Part shown: positions 2,616 through 53,766 of the stretch, in pieces
Layout: every line of letters starts with the position of its first letter
Position numbering within the stretch: the first letter of the stretch is position 1
The notes under the pieces: generated by a model
Databases searched by the model: none
Told to the model about the DNA's origin: nothing
The model's input: only the letters and a program-made list of their open reading frames with translations
Made by a program: the position numbers and the translations under genes
Assembly: GCA_017609105.1 (NCBI GenBank)
Contig: JAFCEQ010000001.1
Coordinates: forward strand, 47,407-111,406
Reading direction: 5' to 3'
Source of the DNA: Candidatus Parvarchaeota archaeon
Lineage (GTDB): Archaea > Nanobdellota > Nanobdellia > JAFCGN01
Length of the DNA stretch: 64,000 bases

Positions 2616-4982
2616 TTATTTTCCAATTTTAATAACTGGTACTGCAACATATTCAGGTGGTTTTTTAATAAATTTAATGTAAATAATCACTGATATTAAT
2701 ATAATCGATGGCAGAACAATAACTAAGAAGAATATGAGCCATGGGAATTGTCTTTTTACAATGAACGGACGTGAGAATGTGCTTTCTCTCTGCCCTATTT
2801 TTGCTGTTACTTTTACATCATAATTTCCTTCTGAGTAATTCGTTAATACTGGGATTTTTTCTTCAAAATTCAGGGTTTTTCTTAAAAATTGTTGGTCGTG
2901 ATTCTCGTAAATGGATTTATTATCTTTTATTATTTCATAGTCAAGCAAGACTTTTGTAATATCCTCCCATGTTTTTGAAATTGTTACATTAAGCAGGAGG
3001 TCTTTGCCTGGTGCTGTTTTTTCTTTTGGAATGCTAATGTAAAGGTCAATCCAATCAATATTTAATGGGTTTGAAAAAGAAAAAAATCTTGCTTTATCTT
3101 CATCAGGGAATTGCATGAAATAATCAATTGAGTAAGAGTAATCTGAACTTGTTGCTTTTGTTTTATCAATTGTTACTTTGAATTGCATGGTTGTATTTGG
3201 TTCAATAGTCACGTTTTGTGGTTCAACAGTGTATTGTGTTTCATTTAGATTGTTTAATTTAATTATTGTATTATTCATGTATGCATTGTAAGGGTTAAGC
3301 ACTGAAATATAAAAACTTAAGTAAGTCGTGTTTTCTTCTGTAACATAAATGTATTGAGTTGTAACAGAGTTAACGCTTACACAACTTGCTTTGCATTCAT
3401 TATCACACCATTGCCCTCCCATTATTGTACAAGTAGTTTCATTATTGCACACTTCCAAGTGTTGAGGGCTGCAACAATATTCTTCTTCACAAGTTCCTGT
3501 AAGAGCACACCATTTCTTACCTAATGATTCGCATTCTGTTTGATTGCATAAACTTAAATGATACTCATCACAACAAGAAGTGTTTCCACAAACACCATTA
3601 CAAAAGTATCCTCCCATATTATAACAATCAGTGACATTCGTGCAAGCTGTTAAATTGCTTATATGACAAGTCAAACAAGGCGAGCTCGAACAATAATTCC
3701 CGCACCAATTACATCCTACGTTTTCACAATCAGTTTTAGTATTACAAGCTGTATCACAATTTGAATAAGAGCAAGTTTCTTCTCCTTCTCCAACAACAAA
3801 AGCACCAATAAAAGTTGATGCTGTTAAAGTGTTAGCGCTTTCATCTTTTGTTGCACTAATGCTTGACCAACTTCCTGTGCAAGTTCTTGAAGAGTAATCC
3901 CATGAAGAGCATCCTTTCATTTGCATTCTTGATTCTGTTACTCCACTATCATCATAAGTTATTTTCACTGTTGCGGAATTATAATTAATTATTCCTGAAT
4001 AAAGCCCTATTGCTTTTTGTGGTGTAAGAGTTAATGGAAGAGAATCATGAGGCACTGGAATATCATCAATTAAAAGAATTTCAGTAATATCATTATTTAT
4101 TGTTGCTGAATTAATTGTTATTTCATAGCTTCCGTAAGTTATTTTAAAAGTATAAGTGCCTTCTATTAAATCAAAAGAATAATCTCCTGTGTAATCTCCT
4201 GAAACAATTGTTCCTGAAGAATTTGTTATTTCTAAATTAACTGTGATAGGCGTTCCGTCTTTATCAACAAAACTACCGCTTACTGTGTGTATGGCTTGAG
4301 AAGATATTGTAAAATAATAAATATATTCTCCTGTCCTATATCCGTCTTTTTCAGCTTTAAAAGTAAAGTGATGACTTCCTGCAGTGTAACCTGATAAATC
4401 AACAGTTCCAACAAAACTACCTCCCTCTCCTGTCGTAACTGTTCCTATTAAATCACTGTCAACATAATATTTTAAATCTTGATTAGCCATTAATTGGCAG
4501 TAACAATCTGGTCCAGCATCTGGTTTGAAATTACAGCAAGCATTATCAACAATTCTTCCTGAAAACCCTACTTGAGCATTCTGCTCGTAAGGGGAGTAAG
4601 TATCAAGATTTAAAGTCAAGTTTAAAGCACCTTCGTAAACATCAACGTTTTTTGTTTTTATCTCATCTTCATAACCTGTTTTATGAGAACGCGTTGTTAA
4701 AACATAAGTTCCTACTTCATTCGGGGCTTCAAAACTTATTATGAATTCTCCACTGCTATTTGTGACAACCATTCCTGCAATGCTATTCACAAGACTTCCG
4801 TCTTTTGTAAGATTGTAATAAACTTCTGCATCACCAATATTCGTGTTTCCAGGAAAAGCTGTTGGTTTCCCTCTTAATGTAATGCCATTTTTTTCATCTC
4901 CTAATTCATGCGTTATTATTTCTGCATTAACTATTGAAATTAAAAAAAACAAGGCAATCATTGAGTAAGTTTTTTTAAGCAT
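2616..4982 (-). CDS. Large Cys-rich cell-surface protein with an N-terminal signal peptide, PEGA/carboxypeptidase-regulatory-like beta domains, four tandem ~30-aa Cys-rich modules and a C-terminal TM anchor
   Basis: Signal peptide MLKKTYSMIALFFLISIVNA. Repeated modules TDCENVGCNWCGNYC / TDCYNMGGYFCNGVC / TECESLGKKWCALTGTC / TTCTIMGGQWCDNEC. C-terminal hydrophobic stretch WLIFFLVIVLPSIILISVIIYIKF followed by KKPP. Confidence 0.5.
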   Translation of the reverse strand: MLKKTYSMIALFFLISIVNAEIITHELGDEKNGITLRGKPTAFPGNTNIGDAEVYYNLTKDGSLVNSIAGMVVTNSSGEFIISFEAPNEVGTYVLTTRSHKTGYEDEIKTKNVDVYEGALNLTLNLDTYSPYEQNAQVGFSGRIVDNACCNFKPDAGPDCYCQLMANQDLKYYVDSDLIGTVTTGEGGSFVGTVDLSGYTAGSHHFTFKAEKDGYRTGEYIYYFTISSQAIHTVSGSFVDKDGTPITVNLEITNSSGTIVSGDYTGDYSFDLIEGTYTFKITYGSYEITINSATINNDITEILLIDDIPVPHDSLPLTLTPQKAIGLYSGIINYNSATVKITYDDSGVTESRMQMKGCSSWDYSSRTCTGSWSSISATKDESANTLTASTFIGAFVVGEGEETCSYSNCDTACNTKTDCENVGCNWCGNYCSSSPCLTCHISNLTACTNVTDCYNMGGYFCNGVCGNTSCCDEYHLSLCNQTECESLGKKWCALTGTCEEEYCCSPQHLEVCNNETTCTIMGGQWCDNECKASCVSVNSVTTQYIYVTEENTTYLSFYISVLNPYNAYMNNTIIKLNNLNETQYTVEPQNVTIEPNTTMQFKVTIDKTKATSSDYSYSIDYFMQFPDEDKARFFSFSNPLNIDWIDLYISIPKEKTAPGKDLLLNVTISKTWEDITKVLLDYEIIKDNKSIYENHDQQFLRKTLNFEEKIPVLTNYSEGNYDVKVTAKIGQRESTFSRPFIVKRQFPWLIFFLVIVLPSIILISVIIYIKFIKKPPEYVAVPVIKIGK

Positions 4983-25877: not shown

Positions 25878-27419
25878 TCAAATTTTTTCTTTAAGAAGGG
25901 CTTCAATAGAATACCTATTCTCTCTTGTTATTTTTTCAGGATTTGTTACATGAAGAAAGGTTATTTTTTCTTCATCAAATCCTATCCTATTTCTTTCCTC
26001 ATCTATTTTTACTACTTTCTTCCATCTTCTCATATCTTCTTTTATTTCTTTTAATTCAATGTTTAAGTCTTTCAATATTTTTCTGAATTCTTTTCTAAAG
26101 TTTTTAAAATTTTCAGGAAGTTTATTATCTTCTTTTCTTATCCTATAAGCAGTAATTTCTTTTTTATTAGGAGGTTTAACTTTTACTTCTTCTAATAACC
26201 CTGCTTTTTTTGCAACGAGCAAGTGCAAATTAATTGAATTTTTTGAAGCATGCATAAATGTTTGTAGATAATTCTTTGTTTTGAATGATTTATGTCTTAA
26301 AATATCTGTTAAAAAATAAAATCTAAGCAATGAAGAATTATTACTGAATTCTTGATTATATTCAAAAGATGACATAAAATATTTGTATTCTTCTTCATTC
26401 ATTACTTGAGAAGCAAGTTCACTTAATGGTGGAATAAAGAATTTCACAGCTTCAAAATTATAATTTTTTTCTTTTAAAACAGCGGATTTGCTGAGAATTG
26501 CTTCAATTCCTACTGTTCTTATCTCACCAATTCTTCTGAAACCTCCTTTCGGGTCTCTTGTTAAAACTTTTCTCCCCCTATTAATTAATGAGTACACACT
26601 CATTGGATCGCAGAAATCATTTATTAAACAAGAATTACAAGCATTTTTATCATAAATATCTAAAAAAGTTGGCTTGTTTTTTTTTAATTCTAAAAGCTCG
26701 GAATGCGTTTTTCTAACTTTCTCTTCAAGAAGTTCTTCTCTTCCAAACCTTTGTATTTTAATTCCAGAACTCTCCTTATTAAATAAAAAGTTAATTAAAA
26801 GTCCTTCATCAGACGGAAGATTATATTCTTCTTCGCAAAGAATATTATATAATAAAAGTTGTAATTTAGGTTTTTCAAAATTTGTTTCATTTACTTTTAA
26901 ATCAATAGGCACTGCTTGTTTCTTGTTTTCTCCCCAAAACTCAATTTTATCAGGAACTCCTACAAGTTTTTTATTTAATCCTTTTAATCTTTCAATTCTT
27001 CCATCAAGAAGGATTGCGTCCTCAAAAACTCCTTCCACAGAGTATAAATTAAATTTCTCGTCTAATGCAGAAACATACCTAGCGTAGTTCAAAGAAGATA
27101 ATTCATTAATAAACGCGTTTATCACGTTTTCTTGCAATTCAAAAGATATGAGTTTTGGTTTTGGAATTAAAAAATTGTTTTCATATGATTCTTTGAAATC
27201 TGAAAAAAAGATTTCATCATTAAATCTTTTATGAACAAGTTGTTTATCAATCCTAATTGATTGAGAAAACAAATTATGAGCAAGAGTATCAATTTCAATT
27301 ACAGGAGTGTAAATATGCCTTCCTTTTCCTAACCAATGCCTCCAAAGCCAATAATTATAACATGTGCTGAAATCCACGAGTTCTGACACACTATTATAAT
27401 TTCTTCTGCCTTTTTTCAT
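25878..27419 (-). CDS. Cas4-like / RecB-family PD-(D/E)xK nuclease with Fe-S cysteines, fused to a ~250-aa C-terminal domain of unknown function
   Basis: N-terminal Cys in SELVDFSTCYNYWLW, motif II ILLDGRIERL, motif III VPIDLKV, QxxxY motif KLQLLLY, and three-Cys cluster CNSCLINDFC (C-x2-C-x5-C) at ~aa 260. The protein continues ~250 aa further. Confidence 0.6.
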   Translation of the reverse strand: MKKGRRNYNSVSELVDFSTCYNYWLWRHWLGKGRHIYTPVIEIDTLAHNLFSQSIRIDKQLVHKRFNDEIFFSDFKESYENNFLIPKPKLISFELQENVINAFINELSSLNYARYVSALDEKFNLYSVEGVFEDAILLDGRIERLKGLNKKLVGVPDKIEFWGENKKQAVPIDLKVNETNFEKPKLQLLLYNILCEEEYNLPSDEGLLINFLFNKESSGIKIQRFGREELLEEKVRKTHSELLELKKNKPTFLDIYDKNACNSCLINDFCDPMSVYSLINRGRKVLTRDPKGGFRRIGEIRTVGIEAILSKSAVLKEKNYNFEAVKFFIPPLSELASQVMNEEEYKYFMSSFEYNQEFSNNSSLLRFYFLTDILRHKSFKTKNYLQTFMHASKNSINLHLLVAKKAGLLEEVKVKPPNKKEITAYRIRKEDNKLPENFKNFRKEFRKILKDLNIELKEIKEDMRRWKKVVKIDEERNRIGFDEEKITFLHVTNPEKITRENRYSIEALLKEKI

Positions 27420-27579: not shown

Positions 27580-30096
27580 ATGAGTGGTGGATTGGAGGAA
27601 AATTTAGAAGATTTAGTTAAAGAGAACGTGTTTGGTTCTAAAATTTTTAGAAAAAACAGTCAAAAAATAATAGCGATTAGCAATCCTTTTTTTAGTGATA
27701 AAGGCATAGCTGTTTCTTTAGAAAGATGGGAGGATTATTGTAAAGTAATTGATAAGTTTTTTGATAAAAAAGGAGATTTTTTTATTCTTGGAGGAGCAAT
27801 AAGCCCAACAAGATTTCATTATTCTAAAAAAAATGTTAAAACCTTGGAACAAGAAATGATGCCTAAGAACCTTGAAGAAATGTTTCCTACTAAGAAAGCT
27901 TTTGAACAAAAACTTTACTATAAAATTGAAAGATTAAAAAAATATATAGAAAAAATTCCTGCAAAAGCAAATATTTATTATCTTATGACAGACACTGATA
28001 ATAAAACAATTGAGGACATCACAAATTTTTATGTTGACTTATTTACTCAAAGAATAACATTAATAAAAAAGAATTTAGATAAATTCCAAGAACTTTATTT
28101 AAAATGGGATGAATTTGATAATGAATTCCAACAAATATTAGAATTGCAAGCAGCAATAGGTAAAAAACTTGGTGGCAATCGTTCTGGTTTGGCAAAAACA
28201 AAAAATGAAAAAACAAAAAAAAGATTGGAAAAAAACATAAAGAGGTTGGAAAAAGAGTTAAAGAACGGGGAGAAAACTATTGAAAAATTTGAAAACAAAA
28301 AACAGAATTATTATAATAAAATAAAACAGAAGTTTGAATTTGTGAACAAATTAAATGAAGAATTAAAAAGCAAGAATTTGTTTTTTATGGAAAAAGAGTT
28401 AACAGATATTGTCAATTCTTTTAATGAAATCAATCCATATTCAGAGTCAATTCTTTCAGAAATAAGCGTTCTTGATTCAAAAATTAGTGATTATTTAAAT
28501 AATCTTGAAAGAAAAATCACTTTTAATGAATGGAATAAGAATTCAAGAATAACTAAAAGGGATTTACCAAATGATATTTTAGCTAAAATAAATGAAACAG
28601 CTAAAAGAGAATATGTTACTCTTTTAGAAAGTGCTGGACTGAATATTATAACACCTGAAATTAAAAAAGAATTAGTTGATAAATTAATTAATGTTTCTTA
28701 CACTCCAATGAGAGTGTTGAAATCTAATGTAAAGAATTTCAGACAAGAACTTGCTATAGAAAAAATGAATAGAGAGATTAAAGAGCGGGTTTTTTTAGTT
28801 GGGAATGATTATTGCTTTAGAGCTCAATCCTTTGTAGTTAATAATAAAGGAGATTTTGTTTATGAAATTACTGTAGGGCCTTTTTTTAATACAAAAAAAG
28901 CAAGAGAACTTTCAAAAAAAGGAATTAAAACAGAAGCAACAAAATTAGTTAATTCATTTGAATCAGTTCAAGGAATGGTTTTCATAGATTATGATCCGAA
29001 AACAACAGCAAGATTTTGTTTCTTACAGGATCATGAATTAGAAACATTTCTTCAACATTTAGAAAAAGAAGATAAAGAAAATTTATTATGCATTGCTCAT
29101 ATTTCAGACCAACATAATACAAAGAGAAATTCAAGAAGAGACCTAATTTTAGGAACAAAACTATTTTTAAGAGAAGATAATAGCCTTGAGAAATTAATTG
29201 AGACAGGAGATTTAACGCAAGGTGTTGGTAATTTCAGCGGAGAACAACTTGCAGGAGTTAATATGCGTCTTGAAGACCAAGTATATGTTGCTGCAAAATC
29301 ATTATTTAACATGTCACTTCCAATAATAAGAAGATCTAGATTAAAACAACCAATCACAACAATAGAAGGAAATCATGCAAAAGGAACAACAAGAATTGGT
29401 TTTAGACCTACTGTTGCTATAACAAATATTTGTAACTTAATTTATAGTATTTCAAACACAAATCAAACAATAAAAAAAACAATTGAAGTAGAAAAAAATG
29501 ATTTACTAATAGAAGAAGGTTTAATACCTCCAGAAAAACCGTTTTACACTGTTTTCTCAAACGGGCCTGAAACAGGAGGATTTATTGATTTTAAATTAAA
29601 GAATAATGAAAGTTTTGGACAAGCTTATGTTAGTCATAAAACTCCAGGAAGAGCTGATAAAGCAGACCCAACTTTAAGAGCTTTTTCTCATTTCAAGGAA
29701 TTAGGAAGATTAAATAAAAACGTTAGAATGGTGTATTTCGGGCACTCGCATCTTCCAGCAACAGCATTAATTGGCGGACTTCACTTGCAATGCGGCGGAA
29801 GTTATGAAGGAATGGATTACAATATTGAATTCCCTCACAAAAATGATTCTTCTTATGCTTACATGGCAGGATTCCCTCCTGCAGCAATGGGTTTTTGGAA
29901 GAACTATGTGGCTAAAGGCAATAATGGCATACAAGGGTTTGTTGTTTCAGAATTCATAAGCCACAAATTATTAGATAGAATAGTTAATGAATATAAAATA
30001 GAAGACAAAACAATTAGAGATATTTTAATTGAGAACGCACTAGAACCAAATGAACTTCCTTCTTCTATTCTTGCAAGATATAAGAAGATTATTTAA
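27580..30096 (+). CDS. Large protein with a K/E-rich coiled-coil segment and a C-terminal Mre11/SbcD-like metallophosphoesterase domain
   Basis: Motif I CIAHISDQHN (aa ~500), II ETGDLTQG (~541), III IEGNHA (~598), V/VI YFGHSHLP (~716). The spacing resembles Mre11. Coiled-coil KKRLEKNIKRLEKELKNGEKTIEKFENKKQNYYNKIKQKFEF at aa ~210-260. No Walker A. Confidence 0.55.
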   Translation: MSGGLEENLEDLVKENVFGSKIFRKNSQKIIAISNPFFSDKGIAVSLERWEDYCKVIDKFFDKKGDFFILGGAISPTRFHYSKKNVKTLEQEMMPKNLEEMFPTKKAFEQKLYYKIERLKKYIEKIPAKANIYYLMTDTDNKTIEDITNFYVDLFTQRITLIKKNLDKFQELYLKWDEFDNEFQQILELQAAIGKKLGGNRSGLAKTKNEKTKKRLEKNIKRLEKELKNGEKTIEKFENKKQNYYNKIKQKFEFVNKLNEELKSKNLFFMEKELTDIVNSFNEINPYSESILSEISVLDSKISDYLNNLERKITFNEWNKNSRITKRDLPNDILAKINETAKREYVTLLESAGLNIITPEIKKELVDKLINVSYTPMRVLKSNVKNFRQELAIEKMNREIKERVFLVGNDYCFRAQSFVVNNKGDFVYEITVGPFFNTKKARELSKKGIKTEATKLVNSFESVQGMVFIDYDPKTTARFCFLQDHELETFLQHLEKEDKENLLCIAHISDQHNTKRNSRRDLILGTKLFLREDNSLEKLIETGDLTQGVGNFSGEQLAGVNMRLEDQVYVAAKSLFNMSLPIIRRSRLKQPITTIEGNHAKGTTRIGFRPTVAITNICNLIYSISNTNQTIKKTIEVEKNDLLIEEGLIPPEKPFYTVFSNGPETGGFIDFKLKNNESFGQAYVSHKTPGRADKADPTLRAFSHFKELGRLNKNVRMVYFGHSHLPATALIGGLHLQCGGSYEGMDYNIEFPHKNDSSYAYMAGFPPAAMGFWKNYVAKGNNGIQGFVVSEFISHKLLDRIVNEYKIEDKTIRDILIENALEPNELPSSILARYKKII

Positions 30097-30187: not shown

Positions 30188-31627
30188 TCAACCTTTTATA
30201 ACACCAATAGGCGTTAGTTTAACAACTCTTCGAGCTATTCCTGTTTTTTCACTAACCATTGCTACTTCATTAATATCCTTATACGCTATTGGAGCTTCTT
30301 CTGCAACAACCCTCCATGAATGCGCTTTAAGAGTTATATTCTTTTTATTCAATTGTTTTTGTATTTCCTCGCCTTTCACTTTGTTCTTTGCTGCATGCCT
30401 GCTCAAAACCCTTCCTGCTCCATGCGCTGTGCTGCCAAACGTTTTCTCCAAACCTTCTTTTGTTCCAACTAAAACATAACTCGAGGTTCCCATACTCCCT
30501 GGTAATAAAACAGGATGCCCATAATTCTTGTATGCTTCCGGCACTTCTTTATGCCCTGCTGGGAACGCTCTCGTCGCTCCTTTTCTATGCACGAAAACTT
30601 CTTTTGTTACTCCTTCAATCTTGTGTTTTTCTTTTTTAGCAATATTATGGCAAATATCATACACTTGCTGTAATTCACTGTTTGGAAAAACTTTTTCAAA
30701 TGCTTGTCTTGCCCAATAAAGAATTAATTGCCTGTTATTCCAAGCAAAATTAGCAGCAGAATTCATTGCTAAAAAATATTTATTACATAAATCAGTGCCT
30801 GCTGGAGCATAAATAAGCTCTCTGTCAGGAAGAGAATTTATTAAATCAGGAAAAGTTCTTTCCATTTCACGCAAATAATCAGAACACACTTGATGGCCTA
30901 AACCCCTGCTCCCAGTGTGAATCATTAAAACAATTTGGTTATCCTCTAATTTAAATGCTTTAGCTGTTTTCTCATCAAAAATTTTCTCTACTTTTTGGAT
31001 TTCCATAAAATGATTTCCTGCTCCTAAACTGCCTAATTGCTTAGCACCTCTTGCTTTTGCTTTATCACTCACAAACAAAGCGTTCGCGTTTAATCTTCCA
31101 TTACTTTCTGTGTGTTTTAAATCATTTTTAGTAGCATAATCCCTCTCATAAGCCCAGGTCGCACCTAAATTAAGAACATTATTAATTTCATCTTTTGTTA
31201 ATCTCCCAAGCCTTCCTTCACTACCTAAACCCGCTGGAATGAATTCATAAATTTTTTTTATAATCTCCTTAATTTTTGGAATAACCTCTTCATAAGTTAA
31301 ATTAGTTCTTACTAAACGAACTCCGCAATTAATATCATAACCAACGCCTCCAGGACTCAAACCACCTGTTTTACTATCTAATGCAACAACACCGCCAATG
31401 CAAAAACCGTATCCTTGATGAGCGTCAGGCAAAGCAATTGAGTATTTATAAATTCCAGGCATTGATGCCATGTTCTTTAATTGTTCAAGAGTTCTATCAT
31501 GACTTATGCTTTCCAAAAGCTTGGTGCTTGCAAAAATTCTTCCAGGAACCTTCATATCTTTAGTTTTAGGTATTTCCCATTCAAATTCATTCAATTTCTT
31601 TAATTTTACTTCCATTCCATTCACCAA
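30188..31627 (-). CDS. rtcB: RNA-splicing ligase RtcB (tRNA ligase)
   Basis: Full-length RtcB signature: ALPDAHQGYGFCIGGV, GYDINCGVR, GAGNHFMEIQ, MIHTGSRGLGHQV, HNIA and a C-terminal HGAGR. Confidence 0.9.
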   Translation of the reverse strand: MVNGMEVKLKKLNEFEWEIPKTKDMKVPGRIFASTKLLESISHDRTLEQLKNMASMPGIYKYSIALPDAHQGYGFCIGGVVALDSKTGGLSPGGVGYDINCGVRLVRTNLTYEEVIPKIKEIIKKIYEFIPAGLGSEGRLGRLTKDEINNVLNLGATWAYERDYATKNDLKHTESNGRLNANALFVSDKAKARGAKQLGSLGAGNHFMEIQKVEKIFDEKTAKAFKLEDNQIVLMIHTGSRGLGHQVCSDYLREMERTFPDLINSLPDRELIYAPAGTDLCNKYFLAMNSAANFAWNNRQLILYWARQAFEKVFPNSELQQVYDICHNIAKKEKHKIEGVTKEVFVHRKGATRAFPAGHKEVPEAYKNYGHPVLLPGSMGTSSYVLVGTKEGLEKTFGSTAHGAGRVLSRHAAKNKVKGEEIQKQLNKKNITLKAHSWRVVAEEAPIAYKDINEVAMVSEKTGIARRVVKLTPIGVIKG

Positions 31628-31718: not shown

Positions 31719-32138
31719 TTAAATATCAAGCGTGAACTTTATCATTGTCTTGTTTTTTTCTTCTTTAATTTCCATTCCAAAATAAGTCATTGCTTTAACA
31801 ACAGATTTTGGAGTATGTTTTTTCTCATTAAATTTTTCACCTCTTGCAGTGCAAATTAAAGAAAAATTTTTTTTGTCTATCATTACTTTGTAATCACAGA
31901 AAAGCAAGTGCTTCATTTCAAAAACATGAATTAATTCATCAATAAAATCATAAAGCAAGGATTTAATATCTTCTGCTTTTATTTTAAATTTATACTCTTT
32001 TTTAGGTTTTATTTGATTTAAATCCACCATTACATTAGTGAATGCTTTAGCACTTTCCTCAAACGCTTCCTCAACACTCTTGCCTTCAGCAACAACAGCA
32101 ATGTCAGCAGTAGCTTCCTCACAAAGATATTTAAACAT
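31719..32138 (-). CDS. Archease (RtcB activator)
   Basis: 139 aa with the N-terminal FKYLCEEATADIAVVAEGKSVEEAFEESAKAF pattern (E.TAD...G...EEAF) typical of archease. It is immediately upstream of rtcB. Confidence 0.75.
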   Translation of the reverse strand: MFKYLCEEATADIAVVAEGKSVEEAFEESAKAFTNVMVDLNQIKPKKEYKFKIKAEDIKSLLYDFIDELIHVFEMKHLLFCDYKVMIDKKNFSLICTARGEKFNEKKHTPKSVVKAMTYFGMEIKEEKNKTMIKFTLDI

Positions 32139-42212: not shown

Positions 42213-43484
42213 TTACGCTTTTTCTATAATGTCTATGCAAACGCCAGCTCCAATAGTTGAGCCCATGTCCCTGATTGCAAAACTTGATAATTGTGGTATA
42301 TCTGATTTCTTTTCAATAACCATTGCTTTTGTTGGTTCTATTTCAACAATTGCTGCGTCTCCTGTTCTTAAAACATCAGGGTTTTCTTCTAAAACTGCTC
42401 CTGTTTTTGGATCAAGTTTTTGCAATAATTTTGTGAATTTGCATGCAACTTGACTTGTGTGGCAGTGGAATACTGGTGTGTATCCTACTGTTATAACAGT
42501 TGGATGATTAAGCACTATGATTTGTGCTTTGAATTTCTTAGCCACTGTTGGTGGGTTATCCACTGGACCTAAAACATCTCCTCTCTTAATTTGGTCTTTT
42601 CCAACGCCTCTTATATTGAATCCGATATTGTCGCCAGCTTCTGCTTTTTGATATGATTCATGATGCATTTCTATGCTTTTCACTTCTCCAACAACATTGC
42701 CAGGTTGCACAACAACTTTTTGCCCTACTTTCATTTCTCCAGTTTCAATCCTGCCAACAGGAACTGTTCCAATACCTGTTATTGAATAAACATCTTGGAT
42801 TGGAAGTCTTAATGGCAAATTAACTGGTGGTTCAGGCACTTCAAACAAGTTAAGTGCTTCAACAAGTGTTGGTCCATTATACCATTGCATTTTATCGCTT
42901 TTCTTTACTATGTTATCTCCCATTAATGCGCTTACAGGCACGAAATGCATTTTTTCTACATTATACCCTATTCCTCTAAGAAGTTTTGATAATTCTTCTT
43001 TTACTTCATTGTATCTTTTCTCATCATAATTCACAGTATCCATTTTATTGATTGCTACATTAATTTGTTTAACTCCTAAGACCTTACTAAGGTATGCGTG
43101 TTCTTTTGTTTGTGGCATTATACCGTCTTTTGCATCAACAACTAAGATCGCTGCATCAGCTTGGCTTGCTCCTGTGATCATGTTTTTAACAAAATCCCTG
43201 TGTCCTGGAGCGTCAATAACAGTAAAGTAGTACTTGTCTGTTTCAAATTTTCTGTGCGCTAAGTCAATTGTAACTCCTCTTTTTCTTTCTTCTTTTGTTG
43301 CATCAACAGCATAAGCGAACTCCCAAGTTCCCTTTCCATATTCTTCTGCTTCTTTTTTGAATTTTTCAAGATCTTGTTGAGAAAGTGCTCCTGTTTCATA
43401 GAAAACTCTACCAATAAGAGTTGATTTTCCGTGGTCTACATGTCCTATGAAGACCAAGTTCATGTGTGGTTTATCTTTTGCCAT
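42213..43484 (-). CDS. tuf: Translation elongation factor EF-1alpha (aEF1A)
   Basis: [18 protein letters not shown] and NKMD G-motifs, with full-length collinear EF-1A sequence. Confidence 0.95.
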
Positions 43485-43536
43485 AATTACATCACCTATT
43501 TTATCATGAGTTTGCTTTATTGAATAAAAATCAATT

Positions 43537-43558
43537 CTTTTTTAAAGATTACTAATTA
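43537..43558 (-). promoter_or_regulatory. Candidate tuf promoter element (22-nt identity with the Cas4-like gene upstream region)
   Basis: ttttttaaagattactaattaa on the plus strand. An AGGTGAT SD lies 8 nt before the tuf ATG. Confidence 0.35.
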
Positions 43559-43601
43559 ATTTATTTTTATTATTAATAATCTTTTATTAGTATTGATTTT
43601 T

Positions 43602-45785
43602 TTATTGGTTTATGCCTTTTCGTTGTTTTATTTTCTTTATTGTTTCTTCTTGTAATTCTCTTGGGATTCTCTCGAACTCTGAGTCCTTTAAAGACCAAAC
43701 GCCTCTTCCTTCAGTTTCACTTCTTAAAGCACTTGTAAACCCGAACATTTCTGCGACAGGCACTTTTGCTGTAATAACAACAAGAGATGGTTGTTGTTCC
43801 ATGTCTATTAATTGTCCTCTTCTTGATTGAATGAGTTTGTTCACAGAGCCCATAAAATCTGTTGGAACATCTATTCTTATTGTTTGAATTGGTTCAAGCA
43901 AGGTGTATTCAGTGCTCATAATCGCGCTTTTAATAGCATCTCTAACAGCAGGAATTACTTGTCCCGGTCCTCTGTGTATTGCATCTTCGTGAAGTTTTAC
44001 GTCCACAAGTTTTACTTTAATCCCGCTTACTGGTTCTTTAGCAACAGGACCTGCTTTCATCACGTCTTCAAATCCTTGCATAACCATTTCTATAACTTCT
44101 TTTATGTGAACTTCTCCTTTTGTCATGTCTAAAAGCAAGTTTCCGTTGTAAATATCAACTACTGACCTGCTTTCTTCTTTTGAAAGTCCTGCTTCTTGTA
44201 ATTTTGTCTGTAATTCAGGAAGTTTCTTTTTAATTCTTCTTTCTTGAATATCCCCTTTCATTATTGCTTCATAAACTTCTTTTTCAAGTGGTTCAACAAA
44301 AATGTAGAACTTATTGTGTTTGTTCGGAGATTTTCCTTCCATTGTCTCGCTTTGTTTTTGAACAGTTTCTCTATAAACTACAAGGGGTTCGCTTGTGATA
44401 ATCTTTATACCTCTGTCTCTTTCAATAATATGTTCTTTTATTTCAAGATGTAATTCTCCAAGCCCGCTGATTAAATGCTCGCCTGTTTCCTCATTTATTT
44501 CTACTTTTAATGTTGGGTCTTCTTTTACAAGATCTCTTAAAACCCTTATTAATTTTGGAAGGTCTTTTGGGTTTTTCGCTTCAATTGCTTTTGTTACAAC
44601 TGGTTCAAAAATGTGTTTAATGTCTTCAAATGGTGTTAATTCTTTTTTTGTAGTTAATGTTTCTCCACTGCTTGCGTTCTTAAGTCCAGAAAGTCCTACA
44701 ATGTTTCCTGCTGGAACTTCTTCCATTGAAAATTTATGATCTCCTTTAAAAATGTATATTTGTTGGATTCTTTGATCACTTATAGCTTTAACAAGATGAA
44801 TGTCCATTCCGCTTCTTAAAGTGCCGCTGAAAATCCTGCCAACAACTAATTCTCCTGCTTGAGGGTCTACAATAACTTTTATTGCACAAAAAATAGCAGG
44901 TCCTTTTTCATCACAATTAAGCAATGCTTTTCCTTCAGGACTTTCTAAATCTCCTTGCCAAATTTTTGGAATCCTGTATTTTTGTGCTTCCACAGGATTT
45001 GGGTAATGATGCACTGCCATATCAAGCACTGCTTCATGAAGAGGTGCTTTTTCTTGTAATTTTTTTAATGCTTCTTTTCTTTCCTCTTCTTCTAAAGCAT
45101 ATGCATTATAAACATCTTTAAAGTTTATTCCTTTCTTTTTCATTATAGGAACACTTAAAGCCCATTTATCAATAGCACTGCCAAATGCTACAGTCCCGTT
45201 ATCAACGCGCACTTGCCATTCATTCTTAAATTCTTTTGGTGCAAAGGAATAAATTAACTTGTTTATTTTGCCAATCATTTGAGTTAATCTTTCTTGCATT
45301 TGCTCAGGCGTTAATTTTAATTCATTTATTAACCTGTCAACCTTGTTTATGAATAAAACAGGTTTTACTTTTTCTTTTAATGATTGTCGTAAAACTGTTT
45401 CTGTTTGAGGCATTGCACCTTCAACAGCGCATACAACAACAAGAGAGCCGTCCACTGCTCTCATTGCTCTTGTAACATCTCCTCCAAAATCAACGTGTCC
45501 TGGAGTATCAATTAAGTTAATTAAATATTCCTTGCCATCAACTTCGTGCACCATGTTCGCTGTTGCGCTTTGAATCGTAATCCCTCTTTGCTGTTCTTCA
45601 TCCATTGTGTCAAGAGCTCTTTGTTGTCCTGCAGTCTCATAAGAAAGCATTCCTGCTCCTGCTAAAAGAGAATCAGAAAGAGTTGTTTTTCCATGATCAA
45701 TATGAGCGATTATTCCCATATTCCTTATTCTTTCTTTTAATCCAATCAATCGTTTAACTTTATCAATCATTGTTTCCTTTGCCAT
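43602..45785 (-). CDS. fusA: Translation elongation factor EF-2 (aEF2)
   Basis: AHIDHGKTTLSD, DTPGHVDF, NKVD and the diphthamide-region residues. Confidence 0.95.
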   Translation of the reverse strand: MAKETMIDKVKRLIGLKERIRNMGIIAHIDHGKTTLSDSLLAGAGMLSYETAGQQRALDTMDEEQQRGITIQSATANMVHEVDGKEYLINLIDTPGHVDFGGDVTRAMRAVDGSLVVVCAVEGAMPQTETVLRQSLKEKVKPVLFINKVDRLINELKLTPEQMQERLTQMIGKINKLIYSFAPKEFKNEWQVRVDNGTVAFGSAIDKWALSVPIMKKKGINFKDVYNAYALEEEERKEALKKLQEKAPLHEAVLDMAVHHYPNPVEAQKYRIPKIWQGDLESPEGKALLNCDEKGPAIFCAIKVIVDPQAGELVVGRIFSGTLRSGMDIHLVKAISDQRIQQIYIFKGDHKFSMEEVPAGNIVGLSGLKNASSGETLTTKKELTPFEDIKHIFEPVVTKAIEAKNPKDLPKLIRVLRDLVKEDPTLKVEINEETGEHLISGLGELHLEIKEHIIERDRGIKIITSEPLVVYRETVQKQSETMEGKSPNKHNKFYIFVEPLEKEVYEAIMKGDIQERRIKKKLPELQTKLQEAGLSKEESRSVVDIYNGNLLLDMTKGEVHIKEVIEMVMQGFEDVMKAGPVAKEPVSGIKVKLVDVKLHEDAIHRGPGQVIPAVRDAIKSAIMSTEYTLLEPIQTIRIDVPTDFMGSVNKLIQSRRGQLIDMEQQPSLVVITAKVPVAEMFGFTSALRSETEGRGVWSLKDSEFERIPRELQEETIKKIKQRKGINQ

Positions 45786-48212: not shown

Positions 48213-49364
48213 TTATTCACCTTTTTTCTTCTTATCCTTGATTGTTTTTTTATTATTTTCTGCTTCATTCACAACTAATTTCACAATTCCTGTTCCTACT
48301 GGTACTGTTTGGTTTATCATAATATTCTCTATAACTCCTTTAAGTTCATCCTTTTCTTTTCTTGTTGCAGCATTATATAAGTGTTTTAAAGGAACTTCAA
48401 AACTTGCTCTTGCAAGAACGCTCTCCTGTTTTTTACTCACGCCATATCTTGTTACTCCTCTTATCATGCCTTCAAGCGTCATTGTGTCAGCGATAAGCAT
48501 TATGTGTCTTAAATTAACGTTTAATCCTTGATCCTTTAAAGTTAAGATTATTTCCCTGATTATTGCGTTTCTCGCAGCTTCAATGCCTAAAACGCTTGCT
48601 ACTTCAAAAATATTATTGCTTATAGTTTTTGTTGGATCCACTTCTTCCATAAGCAATATTTTCTTAAGATTAGTTCCTGCTGTTTGGATTATCCATCCTC
48701 TTGTTTTTTTTATTGGAAGAACTTGAGTTATTCCTTTTATTCCTCTTATATGAATATCTTTTAATTTTGTTTTTAATTTATATAAGTCAATAACTTCTAT
48801 TTCTTTTTTAGGAGTTATTTTAACTAATCCTTTTTTTAAAACCTTAACATCTTCTTCACTGAATATGTTTTTCAAAGTTTTTTCCACATCTTCAAGAGTT
48901 AAAGCATAATTTTCTAAAGATTCCATAGAAATTTGAGCTTCAATCCTAAAATCAAGAAGATTAACAGTAATGCTTTCCATAATATCTTCAAACTTGATTT
49001 CAAGGATTTTTGCTGCAATTTTTTTAACAGCTTCCTCATCATCTCTGTAAGGTTCTTTTAAAAAGATTGTCATGGTTGGCGTGCTTGGCTCTTTTTTCGC
49101 ATCAAAGATTTCTATTAAACGCGGTAATCCTTGCGTAACACTCATTTCAGCAACTCCTGCGAAGTGTTTAGTGTTTAAAGTCATTTGCGTTCCTGGTTCT
49201 CCTAAGGATTGTGCTGCTATCACTCCTATTGCTTCTCCAGGAGTAATCTTTGCTTTTTCATAACTCTCATTTAATTCTTTAAGAATTTTTTTTGCTTCAG
49301 AACTTGAATACTTCTTATTAATCTCATTAATTATGATTTTTGGAATTATTAAATCCTCACTCAT
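48213..49364 (-). CDS. rpoA2: DNA-directed RNA polymerase subunit A'' (Rpo1C)
   Basis: C-terminal third of the largest subunit: [29 protein letters not shown]. Confidence 0.9.
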
Positions 49365-51934
49365 TTTTTATCACCTTCATAGATTTTTCCGCCTTTTGAT
49401 TTAGTTACATCAACCTTGTCATCACCGTACTCAAATTGCACTATTTGTCCTGAAGCATTTCTTACGCTTCCGTCCTTCCATACTTTTAAATCAAGCATGG
49501 CGTTCACTAATCTTCTTTGTAAGTAACCGCTTTTTGGAGTTCTCATACCAGTGTCCATCATACTATCTCTTCCTGCCATTGCATGAAAGAAGAATTCAGT
49601 TGCATTAAGCCCTCCTTTATACCCGTGTTTTACGAAACCTCTTGCCATAGGGCCTAAATCTTCTTTTTCAAAATGAGGCAAAGCTCTTTTCTTATAACCT
49701 TTATTAATTCTCGTACCTCTTAATGCTTGTTGCCCAACTGTTGCAGCAATTAATGCTAAATTAAGAGCGCTTCCTCTTGCTCCTGATTCTGCCATCACAA
49801 TTGTTGGATTTTCTTTAAGATTCTTTTCAACAATATTACTTATTTCATTACGCGCTCTATTCAGGATATCCATTATTTTTACTTCAAGCGTTTCTCTTAA
49901 AGTTCTTCCAGGATATGCTTCCATGTTATTACTCTTGTATTTAGCAATAACTTCATACGCTTGATTTTCTGCTTCTTCTAATCTTTGTTTTATTTTCTTA
50001 ACAAGTTCTTGAGATAAATCAGTGTCTGAAATATAAACGCTGAAACCTCTTTGAGCCAAGTAATTAATGCCTAATAAAGAAATTGCTTGTAAGAATTGTG
50101 ATGTTTTTTCAGGCCCGTACTTAGTGTAGAATTCTTGTAATAAAATACCTTTTCCTGCTCCAATTATTTTTGCATCAATTGTTCCTTCAACAAGTTCTCC
50201 TTTCTTAATCACAACTTTTTCATCAGACTTATTTATTGTTTCAAAATTCAAATCCTTTGGAAGCAATATTGAAAAGATTTGTTTTCCTGTCCAAAACTCT
50301 TTGCCATCTCTTATTTTCTTAGGTTTTGGCAAGGACTCAATATTAAACCCTCCTAATGATGAAAGCAAATTAATTGCTTCTTTTTTTTCTAAATAAACTT
50401 CATTTTTTGTTAAAAGATAATTTCCTGTTATTTGATCTTGTATTGCACCAATGATTGGCAAACCATAACGTGGTGTTATCATATTGTTTATAACATTCAT
50501 TAAAACCTCAACTTCTGAACGAGCCTCATCATTTTGAGGAATGTGAAGATTCATTTCATCACCGTCAAAATCCGCGTTATAAGGCCTTGTTACGCATAAA
50601 TTAAGTCTGAAGGTTTTATAAGGAAGAATTTTGACTTTATGCCCCATCATACTCATTTTATGAAGGCTTGGTTGCCTATTGAATATTGCCCAATCCCCAT
50701 TAATTAAATGCCTCTCAACTATGTACCCAGGAGCTAATTCTTTTAGCACAACCTCTTTTGTCTCATCTGTTATTTTCTTTCTCTTCCCTTCTTTCGTAAT
50801 CACGTAATTCGCTCCAGGATATTTTTTTGGACCGTTCTCAACAAATTTTTTTAACCATTTAATATTCCATTCAGTAACAGTTTCAGGAAATGTTAAATCC
50901 ATTGCCATTAAAATTGGAATACCAACTTCATTAATCTTTATTCGTGGATCAGGACTAATAACAGTTCTTGCACTGAAATCAACTCTCTTGCCTGCTAAAT
51001 TCTTTCTGAACCTTCCTTCTTTGCTTTTTATTCTTTCTTCCAAAGTTTTTAAAGGCCTTCCGCTTCTATGCCTTGCAGGAGGTATTTGATTTATATTATT
51101 CGTAAAAAAAGTTGTCACGTGATATTGAAGTAAATCCCATAAATCTTCTATTATGATTTCAGGAGCTCCTGCATTAAGGTTTTCATAAAGTCTTTGATTT
51201 GTCCTGACAATATCGCCTAACTTATGTGTTAAATCATCTTCGCTTTTAGCGCCTGTTTCTAAAGTAATTGAAGGTCTAGCTGTTACTGGTGGAACAGGTA
51301 ATAATGTTAATATCATCCATTCAGGCCTGCCTGCTTCAGGATTTAAACCAAGATACTCTAAATCATTATCAGGAATGCGTTCTAATCTTTCTCTAATATC
51401 AATGGGTGTTAATCTTGTTCCTTCCTCATTAAAAAAAGAGGGTTTATCAAATTTTATTTTTAATTGTTCTTCCTCACAATGAGGGCACTTCTTAACGTTT
51501 TTAGCTTTTTTTATTATTTCCTTAATAAACGCCCATTTATCAATATCTCCTTTCTGAAGTGAAATATTTTTTAATTTTTCATCATATTTTCTTAAAACCT
51601 CATCACTTAATAAGATTCTTCCGCATTTTCTGCAAGTGCTTGTTAAAAAATTATTTATCCAATTAATATACTTTATGTGAATAACAGGTCTTGCTAATTC
51701 TATTACTCCAAAATGCCCTAAACACTCTTTAACTTTAGAACCGCAAGTCCTGCATCTTAAACCAGGATCAACAACACCCATTCTTAAATCCATTAATCCT
51801 CCATCCACTGGATAACTATCAATATCATAAAGTTCAGGAGTTGTTATCTTCACTACTCCCATTTTTTGAATCATTTTAGGGGACATTAATCTAAATTCTA
51901 TGCTTCCTATTTTTTCTTTTACTAAATCATTCAT
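49361..51934 (-). CDS. rpoA1: DNA-directed RNA polymerase subunit A' (Rpo1N)
   Basis: Zn-finger [16 protein letters not shown], catalytic [12 protein letters not shown], 857 aa. Confidence 0.95.
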
Positions 51935-51948
51935 TTTTTATTCACCAT

Positions 51949-53766
51949 TTACATCTTATCCTTAAGATTAAGTTTTGGATAAATGCATAAAGATTTTAGT
52001 TCATCCAATAAAAGCTTGAATGCATAACTCATCTCCACAAAACCTATTTCAGTGTTTTCTCCGCATATAAGACACATTCCTTTCTTCCTGAATTTATTGT
52101 ATATAGCAACATTACCGCATTTCTTGCACACAGGGATTTTTGTTTTATCTGAATCAAATCTCTCTTTTAAAAGCAAAGAAGCTCCGTGCGCTACAAAGCA
52201 ATGATTCTCCATTTCTCCAAGCCTTAATCCTCCTTCTTTACTTCTTCCTTCTGTTGGTTGTCTTGTTAATAATTGTATTGGTCCTCTTGAACGACTATGT
52301 ATTTTATTTGCAACCATGTGCTTTAATTTTAAATAAAATGAATTACCTATGAAGATTCTTGCTTTATATTGTCTTCCTGTTTTTCCATCATACATAATCT
52401 CAGTGCCATCATCCTTGAATCCTAATTCAATAAGCGTGTCTCTTAATTCCCTTTCAGATTCTGAACTGAATGGTGATGCATCAACAAACTTTCCTGATAA
52501 CGCTCCTACTTTTCCGCCAATAATTTCAAGTAATTGCCCAACAGTCATACGACTTGGTATTGAATGAGGACTGAAAATAACATCAGGTACTACCCCGCTT
52601 GCTGTAAAAGGCAAGTCTCTTTGAGGGACTAACATGCCGATAACACCTTTTTGTCCGTGCCTTGATGAGAATTTATCACCGATTTCAGGAATTCTTTGAT
52701 CCCTTATTCTCACTCCAACGAGTTTGTTCCCAGCATCACTATCTGTTAAAAGAACTGAATCAACAATGCCTTTTTCTTTAAATCTTACAGAAACGCTTGT
52801 CTCCCTTCTCTCTTCAACACCCATCTTGAATTCTTCTAAACTTGTTAAAAACCTTGGAGGGCTTGTTTTACCAACTAACACATCACCGGAATTAACAACT
52901 GCTTCTGGATAAATAATGCCATCTTCTTCAAGATGCCTGTAAACTTTTTCAGTTCTATATCCTTTTACTTCTTTGCTTGGTATTTCAATAGAATCTAATT
53001 GTCCTCCAGGATACCTTAATTCTTCTGTGAAATAAGGTCTGAAATACGTGCTCCTAAATAATCCTCTTTCAACACTTGATTTATTAAAAATTATTGCATC
53101 CTCCATATTATACCCGTGCCAACTCATTACTGCAATAACCATGTTTTGCCCGACAGGATGAGAATCATAATCCATTACATCATAAATGTAAGTATTAACA
53201 ATAGGTCTTTGAGGATAATGAAGAATATTAGCATCAGTATCCATTCTTAACAAATAATTAGAAGCGTAAACACCGATTCCCTGCTTCATTGTTTTAGCGC
53301 CAATCATTACTCTAACAGATAAATTATGCTCAGGGAAAGGCACCATGCTTGCTTTGCTTCCGAAAATTATTGCAGGACTTAATTCAAGATGCGTGTGTTT
53401 CGGGGTTAATTGAGATTCATCCAAAGCAATAAGCGTGTTCTCTTCTTCTTCTGCATCCAAGTACTCAATAACTCCTTGTTTAACTAAATCATTAAAATCA
53501 ATTTCACCTTTTTTCAATTGTTCATAAAGCTCTGTTGTAAACAAGGATTTACCATTTTTAACAACAATTAAAGGTCTTCTTGCTCTTCCTTTCTCAGTAT
53601 TTATGAAAACAATATTTTGATCCTCATCATAAGCAACATTAACTTCTTTAGGAAGATTGCCAATCCTTCTTTGTTCTCTTATGAATTCCACCCATTCCTT
53701 TGGATTATCACAACATCCTTCAAGCCTGCCATTTATATACACGTCTGCCATTTTTTTAATCACCAT
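51949..53766 (-). CDS. rpoB1: DNA-directed RNA polymerase subunit B' (Rpo2C, C-terminal half of B)
   Basis: GDKFSSRHGQKGVIG and a C-terminal Zn-ribbon CKKCGN...CLICG. Confidence 0.95.
   Translation of the reverse strand: MVIKKMADVYINGRLEGCCDNPKEWVEFIREQRRIGNLPKEVNVAYDEDQNIVFINTEKGRARRPLIVVKNGKSLFTTELYEQLKKGEIDFNDLVKQGVIEYLDAEEEENTLIALDESQLTPKHTHLELSPAIIFGSKASMVPFPEHNLSVRVMIGAKTMKQGIGVYASNYLLRMDTDANILHYPQRPIVNTYIYDVMDYDSHPVGQNMVIAVMSWHGYNMEDAIIFNKSSVERGLFRSTYFRPYFTEELRYPGGQLDSIEIPSKEVKGYRTEKVYRHLEEDGIIYPEAVVNSGDVLVGKTSPPRFLTSLEEFKMGVEERRETSVSVRFKEKGIVDSVLLTDSDAGNKLVGVRIRDQRIPEIGDKFSSRHGQKGVIGMLVPQRDLPFTASGVVPDVIFSPHSIPSRMTVGQLLEIIGGKVGALSGKFVDASPFSSESERELRDTLIELGFKDDGTEIMYDGKTGRQYKARIFIGNSFYLKLKHMVANKIHSRSRGPIQLLTRQPTEGRSKEGGLRLGEMENHCFVAHGASLLLKERFDSDKTKIPVCKKCGNVAIYNKFRKKGMCLICGENTEIGFVEMSYAFKLLLDELKSLCIYPKLNLKDKM

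Follow-up and report, generated by a model that had tools for sequence, protein, structure and literature searches.

A very rare archaeal protein family that joins a predicted DP1-like metallophosphoesterase domain to a coiled coil

An unannotated 838-aa protein is encoded within the window, the whole 64,000-nucleotide stretch of Candidatus Parvarchaeota archaeon DNA analyzed here. On balance, we take this protein to be an active two-metal phosphodiesterase of new architecture, probably a single-strand nuclease. D510, H512, D544 (the bridging ligand), N598, H686, H722, and H724 would coordinate two metal ions, in a dimetal geometry that is predicted from the positions of the motifs. H599 would serve as proton donor, as its counterparts do in Mre11 and in DP1, the exonuclease of archaeal DNA polymerase D (PolD). 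The enzyme would then cleave phosphodiester bonds at single-stranded nucleic-acid ends, not in duplex DNA. This single-strand preference is proposed because the predicted fold is DP1-like, because the loop after motif II has the DP1 length and carries an aromatic residue, and because a second long loop is present. The features of the gene and of its product are as follows (flagged residues are those that the initial annotation regarded as atypical).

27580..30096, + strand: whole gene (P0001, 838 aa), an ORF of an unannotated rare family
27631..28059, + strand: N-terminal alpha/beta domain, aa 18-160, from family alignments (putative fold class only)
28060..28566, + strand: long helical, coiled-coil-like segment, aa 161-329, from helices of the full-length model and weak profile matches
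28567..28785, + strand: helical linker, aa 330-402 (low confidence)
28786..29070, + strand: beta-rich module, aa 403-497 (model m40cf847a4eea, residues 1-95, pLDDT 74-89)
29071..30009, + strand: metallophosphoesterase (PDE) domain, aa 498-810
29104-29115, + strand: motif I, SDQH, aa 509-512, with predicted ligands D510 and H512 (invariant in 12/12)
29206-29223, + strand: motif II, GDLTQG, aa 543-548, with D544 as predicted bridging ligand
29206..29280, + strand: motif II with its extended loop, G543-Q567 (Q547 flagged; F552 a conserved aromatic)
29368-29379, + strand: motif III, GNHA, aa 597-600, with predicted ligand N598 and catalytic His H599 (A600 flagged)
29632-29640, + strand: motif IV, SHK, aa 685-687, with the invariant predicted ligand H686 (H686-K687 at 29635..29640)
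29740-29751, + strand: motif V, GHSH, aa 721-724, with predicted ligands H722 and H724 (S723 flagged)
29794..29889, + strand: second long conserved loop, aa 739-770, SLExxDxxVxxPxKTDSSYGxxxGF, a coil in the model

Assignment of the window protein to the phosphoesterases is indirect, through the Pfam matches of its homologues and through its predicted fold. Searches of Pfam, NCBIfam, and PDB with the window protein, its C-domain, or the family profile yielded no metallophosphoesterase match, and the window protein fails to match Pfam PF00149 or PF12850 even at E<=10. Pfam Metallophos does match four of the 12 aligned family members; P0008 (33.9 bits), P0006 (24.4 bits), and P0010 (23.8 bits) exceed the 21.5-bit cutoff and P0014 falls below it. 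The predicted fold matches only metallophosphoesterases. The initial annotation was right to place the domain within the Mre11-like nuclease branch of these enzymes. In the model a two-sheet beta-sandwich is present and each motif lies at the C-terminal end of a predicted beta-strand, motif IV, for example, following the strand at aa 678-685. Such placement is a trait shared by all metallophosphoesterases.

SDQH, GDLTQG, GNHA, SHK, and GHSH are all in frame in the ORF at 27580..30096 (+), and thus the strings first reported for this region (GDLTQG, GNHA, and GHSH) are real and belong to one gene. The interval from which they were reported, 29080-29760, spans motifs I-V, with the domain continuing to about nt 30009. 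When all six frames of the 64-kb window are translated, the motif order D.H...GD...GNH...H...GH.H turns up a single time, at nt 29107, and none of 20,000 shuffled versions of the protein contains it. All 12 aligned members carry D510, H512, D544, N598, H599, H686, H722, and H724 without exception, and these residues align with D8/H10, D49, N84/H85, and H206/H208 of Pyrococcus furiosus Mre11; H599 is the counterpart of Mre11 H85 and of DP1 H451. Within the family alignment G543 and D544 of motif II are invariant, position 552 is F or Y in 12/12, the GNH of motif III is invariant, and motif V retains its G and both His residues throughout. In the second long loop, F765 never varies and S741 and S757 hardly do.

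The three flagged residues do differ from the canonical strings against which the initial annotation compared them (GDLFD, GNHD, and GHEH), but they are not metal ligands. Q547, A600, and S723 occupy second-shell or variable positions as judged from the alignment, with Q547 being the family norm and A600 and S723 drifting freely. Position 547 is Q in 10 members, D in one, and E in one. Position 600 is unconstrained, the residue after GNH across the 12 members being A, S, D, G, E, D, L, D, S, I, E, and G (D/E in 5/12). The third residue of GHxH is S in six members, A in three, T in two, and I in one, and it is Ile in the active P. furiosus Mre11. Motif II of the latter protein is itself GDLFH, not GDLFD. 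A neutral residue also occupies the position equivalent to 547 in the ApaH-like phosphatases, an active subfamily (PMC8220851). Because the flagged positions are non-ligand and all seven ligands and the catalytic His are intact, neither the altered metal coordination nor the inactivated scaffold that had been suggested is supported. The initial annotation had anticipated such an outcome in what it named as a refutation. Loss of acidic partners (D to Q at 547 and no D/E at 600) could nevertheless reduce activity or shift the preferred pH or metal. The atypical residues are normal variation at non-ligand positions and matter little in themselves, and the site looks competent for catalysis; the protein is of more interest as a member of an unannotated, very rare family that joins a phosphoesterase resembling the PolD proofreading domain to a coiled coil.

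At 50% identity this family forms just 11 clusters out of 1.84 billion representatives, and neither Pfam 2025, NCBIfam 2026, nor PADLOC has an entry for it. (A defense-system role was considered and rejected, with no PADLOC match.) Its proteins are ~520-960 aa long, 8 of the 12 aligned members being 800-960 aa, and share only 21-32% identity. The family architecture, read from the N terminus, is alpha/beta domain, long coiled coil, beta-rich module, and phosphoesterase domain. Archaeal marker genes are found on at least four of the member contigs, and the nearest genome record belongs to a DPANN archaeon. A scan for related loci with the single protein found one close relative only. The orthologue of the window gene is 77% identical with conserved synteny, and dN/dS is 0.16 for the whole gene and 0.10 for the phosphoesterase domain, its most constrained part. 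Given the strong purifying selection on the + frame, an 86-aa antisense ORF (29097..29357) was set aside. Neighbors of the window gene include a divergently transcribed Cas4-like nuclease, RtcB, and archease, and no conserved gene partner was found across nine contexts. The ~170-aa upstream ORFs of the window and of L012 bear no relation to each other.

The portions of the protein that precede the phosphoesterase domain are less well defined. A full-length AF2 model from 5 close sequences was unusable (pLDDT 37.6); helices 144-206 and 210-265 have pLDDT 72-84 in the full-length model, which is poor elsewhere. Profile scans of the coiled-coil segment gave weak coiled-coil-type matches only, and the segment is missing from the 620-aa family member P0008. 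A motif scan of the 838-aa protein found neither a Walker A motif nor a CxxC hook. The beta-rich module, immediately N-terminal of the phosphoesterase core, is predicted to run b1-b2-b3-helix-helix-b4-b5. This is the strand order of an OB fold, making the segment a putative OB module; no OB family match was found for aa 403-497. The N-terminal domain, which contains the conserved strings ISNPFF, ILGG, and YYLMTDTDN in the family alignments, may have arisen by duplication of the first half of the phosphoesterase domain and later degeneration. An hhalign comparison of the N-domain with the C-domain sets LGG on TGD and RLxQ on RxDDQ with E-values of 0.33-0.5, which are not significant; the duplication is kept as a hint because these registers agree with the prediction from reading the motifs. 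The spliced N-domains have no Metallophos match in Pfam, and the N-domain profile retrieved only a coiled-repeat artefact from PDB.

Comparison of structures places PolD DP1, a 3'-5' proofreading exonuclease (5ihe, 6t8h, 8ppt), and the eukaryotic polymerase B-subunits closest in fold, with Foldseek alignments to DP1 and the Pol alpha B-subunit extending over 450-480 columns. DP1 scores above any Mre11, and the phosphoesterase core is closest to DP1. Thus, the suggestion of a different subfamily or substrate is supported, and Mre11/SbcD does not hold up as the closest relative. Comparison of sequences is less informative: the family HMM scores 2.0 bits with DP1 and 6.6 bits with Mre11, neither significant and with no discrimination between them, and searches for homologous proteins with the family alignment and then with a DP1 fragment returned nothing. 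The loop after motif II matches a single-stranded (ss) DNA "selectivity loop" of DP1 in both length and pattern, with 22 residues from the bridging Asp to a DQ pair in each protein. A second selectivity loop of DP1 consists of residues 577-597 (PMC10721889), and the loop at aa 739-770 may be its counterpart, a correspondence that does not come from an alignment.

A more specific version of the nuclease reading, which is offered tentatively and which we think is rather less than likely to be right in full, is that the PolD proofreading subunit gave rise to this family as a stand-alone protein not described before. In such a protein, the beta-rich (possibly OB) module and a DP1-type phosphoesterase with ssDNA-selectivity loops would have been fused to a coiled coil and to an N-terminal domain that is possibly a degenerate phosphoesterase copy. 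It would then work without a polymerase, as a nuclease for single-strand 3' ends, during DNA repair or end processing in genome-reduced DPANN archaea, and in the lineage of the window it may cooperate with the divergently transcribed Cas4-like 5'-3' nuclease. Were it truly a DP1-like nuclease on its own, this would be the first known case of a DP1-type phosphoesterase working outside a polymerase and an addition to the poorly known DPANN DNA-repair toolkit.

The alternative that survives best, although we consider it unlikely, is that the site is intact and hydrolyzes something other than nucleic acid, such as nucleotides, cyclic or dinucleotides, lipid-linked phosphates, or phosphoproteins. 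Metallophosphoesterase folds serve many functions; the fold search retrieved GpdQ, Rv0805, MJ0936, and 5'-nucleotidases among its good matches; and no conserved DNA-metabolism partner is present in the loci examined. It is considerably less probable that the protein is a highly diverged DP1 orthologue and hence the proofreading subunit of the PolD of this organism. Such an assignment would account for DP1 being the best structural match, for the loop pattern common to both proteins, and for the order of beta-rich module and phosphoesterase, which is collinear with the OB-PDE order of DP1. However, Pfam PF04042 (DNA_pol_E_B) matches none of the 12 members, and neither the ten largest window ORFs scanned nor the genes called in the fetched loci include a DP2. 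Furthermore, DP1 is a conserved, mostly single-copy replisome gene across DPANN (PMC12680538, PMC6355029), unlike a family of so few clusters.

Two other proposals carry very little weight. Vps29 and the eukaryotic polymerase B-subunits are metallophosphoesterase folds without catalysis, and the window protein might likewise have kept the Mre11/DP1 fold as a structural module only. Inactive metallophosphoesterases lose ligand residues. In this family, however, none of the seven ligands varies, nor does the catalytic His, despite identities as low as 21-32%, the phosphoesterase domain is under the tightest constraint in the gene, and D or E still follows GNH in five members, making a loss of catalysis most improbable. 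We regard as equally improbable that the protein is a divergent true Mre11/SbcD, the double-strand-break nuclease of the archaeon with its coiled coil replacing Rad50/SbcC, since no Mre11 or SbcD family matches in Pfam or NCBIfam scans, DP1 outscores every Mre11 in the structure comparison, the motif II loop is DP1-length rather than Mre11-short, the protein lacks an ABC-ATPase, Walker A, and zinc hook, no Rad50-like gene is present among the immediate neighbors or the ten largest window ORFs scanned, and a core repair factor would be much commoner than this family is.

The active phosphodiesterase favored here can be set beside four known groups of proteins. The top viral structural matches are phage metallophosphatases annotated as "DNA polymerase II small subunit" (BFVD; E 1e-8 to 1e-5 at ~400 aa); their TM-scores are low (0.4) and they contain neither a coiled coil nor the N-terminal domain. 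Relative to generic calcineurin-like metallophosphoesterases (PF00149, PF12850; GpdQ, Rv0805, MJ0936), the window protein falls below every Pfam threshold and has extra loops and a multidomain, 838-aa architecture. Active-site loops are shortened in Mre11 (PMC10721889), and the short loops that admit double-stranded DNA, an Mre11 trait, are not seen in the window protein: the bridging Asp and the GNH Asn are 54 residues apart, versus 35 in P. furiosus Mre11 (1ii7). The window protein also differs from Mre11/SbcD in having no ATPase or zinc hook, and no capping domain was identified in it. From DP1 it differs in the absence of a PF04042 match and of significant sequence similarity, in having Gln rather than Asp at the fourth residue of motif II, in an insertion of ~40 residues between motifs III and IV together with a shorter gap between IV and V, in a 400-residue N-terminal extension that includes the coiled coil, and in a rare, patchy distribution, whereas DP1 is near-universal and mostly single-copy. 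Nevertheless, the loop after motif II is equal in length to DP1 403-427, and both proteins have the pattern GDxxxGxGx[YF]xG[QE]...DQ.

The interval 29080-29760 falls within a single open reading frame (27580..30096, + strand) encoding 838 aa. This protein is a rare, unannotated, coiled-coil-bearing DPANN protein with a metallophosphoesterase (PDE) domain (aa 498-810) at its C-terminus. The motif strings reported by the initial annotation (GDLTQG, GNHA and GHSH) are present and in frame, as are SDQH and SHK:

aa 509-512, nt 29104-29115, + strand, in frame: SDQH
aa 543-548, nt 29206-29223, + strand, in frame: GDLTQG
aa 597-600, nt 29368-29379, + strand, in frame: GNHA
aa 685-687, nt 29632-29640, + strand, in frame: SHK
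aa 721-724, nt 29740-29751, + strand, in frame: GHSH

Translated in all six frames, the 64-kb window contains the five motifs in this order a single time; shuffling the window protein 20,000 times never produced the pattern.

The phosphoesterase assignment is supported, although direct searches were negative. With the threshold relaxed to E<=10, Pfam Metallophos (PF00149) still matches neither the whole protein nor its last 368 aa, the NCBIfam scan gave no metallophosphoesterase match, and the PDB sequence database returned nothing with the window protein, the family profile or the 620-aa family member P0008 as query. However, PF00149 matches the equivalent domain in four family members. The match to P0008 (5.4e-8) covers profile positions 4-190 of 191, from motif I to GHxH, and two further members (P0006 and P0010) likewise score above the gathering score. 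The 12-member alignment served to build an AlphaFold2 model of aa 403-838 (pLDDT 77.9, pTM 0.83), in which every motif lies at a strand end; pLDDT in the blocks that bear the motifs is 70-94. Two independent lines, the PF00149 matches in members and the AlphaFold2 model, establish the superfamily: the window protein is a metallophosphoesterase on motifs and fold, with a Pfam link that is transitive, via its relatives.

The initial annotation held that three residues of these motifs (Q547, A600 and S723) depart from Mre11/SbcD at the metal site, which could mean altered metal coordination, a different substrate or an inactivated scaffold. In the 12-sequence alignment the invariant columns are D510, H512, G543, D544, G597, N598, H599, H686, K687, K694, G721, H722 and H724, a set that contains all seven canonical metal ligands and the catalytic histidine. 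In the family HMM these residues are in register with P. furiosus Mre11 D8/H10, D49, N84/H85 and H206/H208. The metal ligands of DP1, the PolD proofreading subunit, are listed as the same set (two Asp, one Asn, four His), and in DP1 the essential proton donor is H451, the His of GNH, which corresponds to H85 of Mre11 (PMC4996933; PMC10721889).

The flagged positions lie elsewhere; each is either free to vary or carries the family norm, and none is a ligand. Position 600, after GNH, shows no constraint (A, S, D, G, E, D, L, D, S, I, E and G in the 12 members), position 723, the x of GHxH, is variable (S in six, A in three, T in two, I in one), and Gln is the norm at position 547, the fourth residue of motif II (Q in ten, D and E in one each). 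The strings do differ from GDLFD and GHEH. However, active P. furiosus Mre11 itself reads ADIHLG / AGDLFH / EGNHD / GHIH in its PDB sequence, which shows that Mre11 proteins themselves do not all carry GDLFD and GHEH. A hydrogen bond links the second Asp of GDxxD to the catalytic His in PP1, calcineurin and lambda phosphatase; Gln in place of that Asp retains a hydrogen-bond acceptor. A neutral residue at the position equivalent to 547 is also found in ApaH-like phosphatases, including an active decapping enzyme (PMC8220851). Relative to the orthologue in the close-relative locus L001, the PDE domain has a dN/dS of 0.10, the lowest among the gene segments (whole gene, 0.16). With ligands and catalytic His invariant, neither altered coordination nor an inactivated scaffold finds support. 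An intact site, with none of the flagged residues among its ligands, is very likely, and from the sequence we conclude that the site would be built for two-metal binding and catalysis. The motifs are real, but the interpretation first placed on them largely falls away.

The rest of the protein is organized as follows:

aa 18-160: conserved alpha/beta domain
aa 161-329: long helices, the sole confident part (pLDDT 72-84) of a poor full-length model
aa 330-402: helical segment
aa 403-497: b1-b2-b3-helix-helix-b4-b5, confidently predicted, directly N-terminal to the PDE core

A motif scan of the aa 161-329 helices found neither a Walker A motif nor a CxxC hook, and the segment is missing from P0008. 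The predicted strand order of aa 403-497 is that of an OB fold, making this a candidate OB domain; the OB domain of DP1 sits at the matching place. The N-terminal parts may be a degenerate copy of the PDE, perhaps an ancient internal duplication with ligand loss. By hhalign, 27631..28059 aligns in consistent register with 29071..29400, the first half of the PDE (E 0.33), and the best registers are those that a reading of the motifs predicts (LGG on TGD, RFxYSK on NYxGxxT, RLxQ on RxDDQ, VFLVGNDYCFR on VYFGHSHLPA). However, the N-terminal versus C-terminal scores are sub-significant (E 0.33-0.5), and N-domain searches in Pfam and PDB were negative.

A word-indexed protein search found the window protein itself and one 77%-identical orthologue, nothing else. 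Scanned exhaustively by HMMER with aa 381-838, a set of 1.84 billion cluster representatives yielded just 11 clusters; the ten others are 23-32% identical to the window protein, and most are 800-960 aa. One 658-aa member (P0013) has an EF-Tu GTP-binding fragment (aa 6-57, Pfam 9.3e-11) ahead of its coiled-coil and PDE part, which is most likely a chimera produced by gene calling or assembly and not a genuine fusion.

The window is core archaeal DNA (30% G+C). It encodes SecY and, judged from synteny with L001, includes an operon of ribosomal proteins; other genes are:

25878..27419, - strand: Cas4-family PD-(D/E)XK nuclease, 513 aa, upstream of and divergent from the phosphoesterase gene
30188..31627, - strand: RtcB RNA ligase (Pfam 1.3e-162), directly downstream of and convergent with the phosphoesterase gene
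31719..32138, - strand: archease, the RtcB activator (Pfam 2.8e-38), adjoining RtcB
42213..45785: EF-2 and EF-1alpha
48213..55280, - strand: RNA polymerase operon, with RpoB split in two genes (506 and 605 aa), then RpoA' (857 aa) and RpoA'' (383 aa)

The polymerase operon and elongation factors are typical archaeal core-gene content and bear out that the DNA is archaeal. Three large ORFs on the - strand (2616..4982, 57555..58970 and 60957..62546; 788, 471 and 529 aa) lack a meaningful Pfam match; the first has a sub-threshold CooC_C match. The nuclease domain of the Cas4-like protein is its N-terminal half (about aa 10-271), and the Fe-S cysteines (C...CX2CX5C) are visible in translation as Cys20 and CNSCLINDFC. 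Its C-terminal extension of ~240 aa has no Pfam match in the window copy; the L001 orthologue has a weak DUF7821 match.

The arrangement with the divergent Cas4-family gene is conserved in relatives of 77-81% identity but absent from distant family members, and the RtcB-archease adjacency is retained only in the close relatives (loci L001 and L002). In these two, the downstream stretches (L001 15063..17924, L002 7519..10380) carry a SLFN/AlbA_2-HATPase_c_4 gene and a toxin-antitoxin-like HEPN and Pol-beta nucleotidyltransferase pair. The neighbours of distant members are unrelated; several contexts contain archaeal markers, for example aEF-1alpha, GatD/E, Nop5 and fibrillarin, and one member adjoins Hjc, DnaG-type Toprim proteins and an OB-fold protein. 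No conserved partner gene was found across the family contexts, and PADLOC gave no defence-system match. In two distant loci the family gene has a small AAA_18 (nucleotide-kinase-like) gene immediately downstream of it (L007 3667..4991, L006 9141..9671), and in L007 a canonical Metallophos gene of its own (293 aa) comes next; with 2 of 9 contexts, this recurrence is too weak for any interpretation.

Among known systems, identity as Mre11/SbcD is rejected: there is no family model match, the protein has no ATPase or hook, no Rad50/SbcC partner was seen among its immediate neighbours or the ten largest window ORFs, and it has long loops. Counted from the bridging Asp to the Asn of GNH, the spacing is 35 residues in P. 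furiosus Mre11, 46 in DP1 and 54 in the window protein. Foldseek with the predicted structure gave DP1 chains as its top five PDB matches, and matches in BFVD were phage metallophosphatases, several annotated 'DNA polymerase II small subunit'. Around motifs I-III, P. abyssi DP1 reads AGDVVDGIGIYPGQYSDLVIPDIFDQ and the window protein TGDLTQGVGNFSGEQLAGVNMRLEDQ; the two have a Gly/Gly/aromatic/Gly pattern in common and the same 22 residues from the bridging Asp to a conserved DQ pair. The loop aromatic is F or Y in all 12 family members. In DP1 this stretch, at residues 403-423, is one of two 'selectivity loops', which touch the single-stranded primer, keep out duplex DNA and are shortened in Mre11 (PMC10721889). 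A second long, conserved, unstructured loop follows motif V (aa 739-770, F765 invariant), roughly where the second DP1 selectivity loop would be expected. The family HMM scores both a DP1 fragment (2.0 bits) and Mre11 (6.6 bits) low, so the preference for DP1 rests on predicted structure and loop pattern.

The mechanism best supported for the window protein is that of an active phosphodiesterase with two metals and with access loops resembling those of DP1; such loops would probably make it a nuclease on single strands, a role for the PDE domain that we propose tentatively. DP1 is a conserved replisome gene, mostly in single copy, and DPANN archaea have it. There is a modest probability that the window protein descends from the PolD proofreading subunit as a stand-alone form. 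It would work like DP1 yet is not classed as DP1: PF04042 does not match, DP2 was not seen among the ten largest window ORFs or the genes called in the family loci, and the distribution (11 clusters in 1.84 billion) is wrong.
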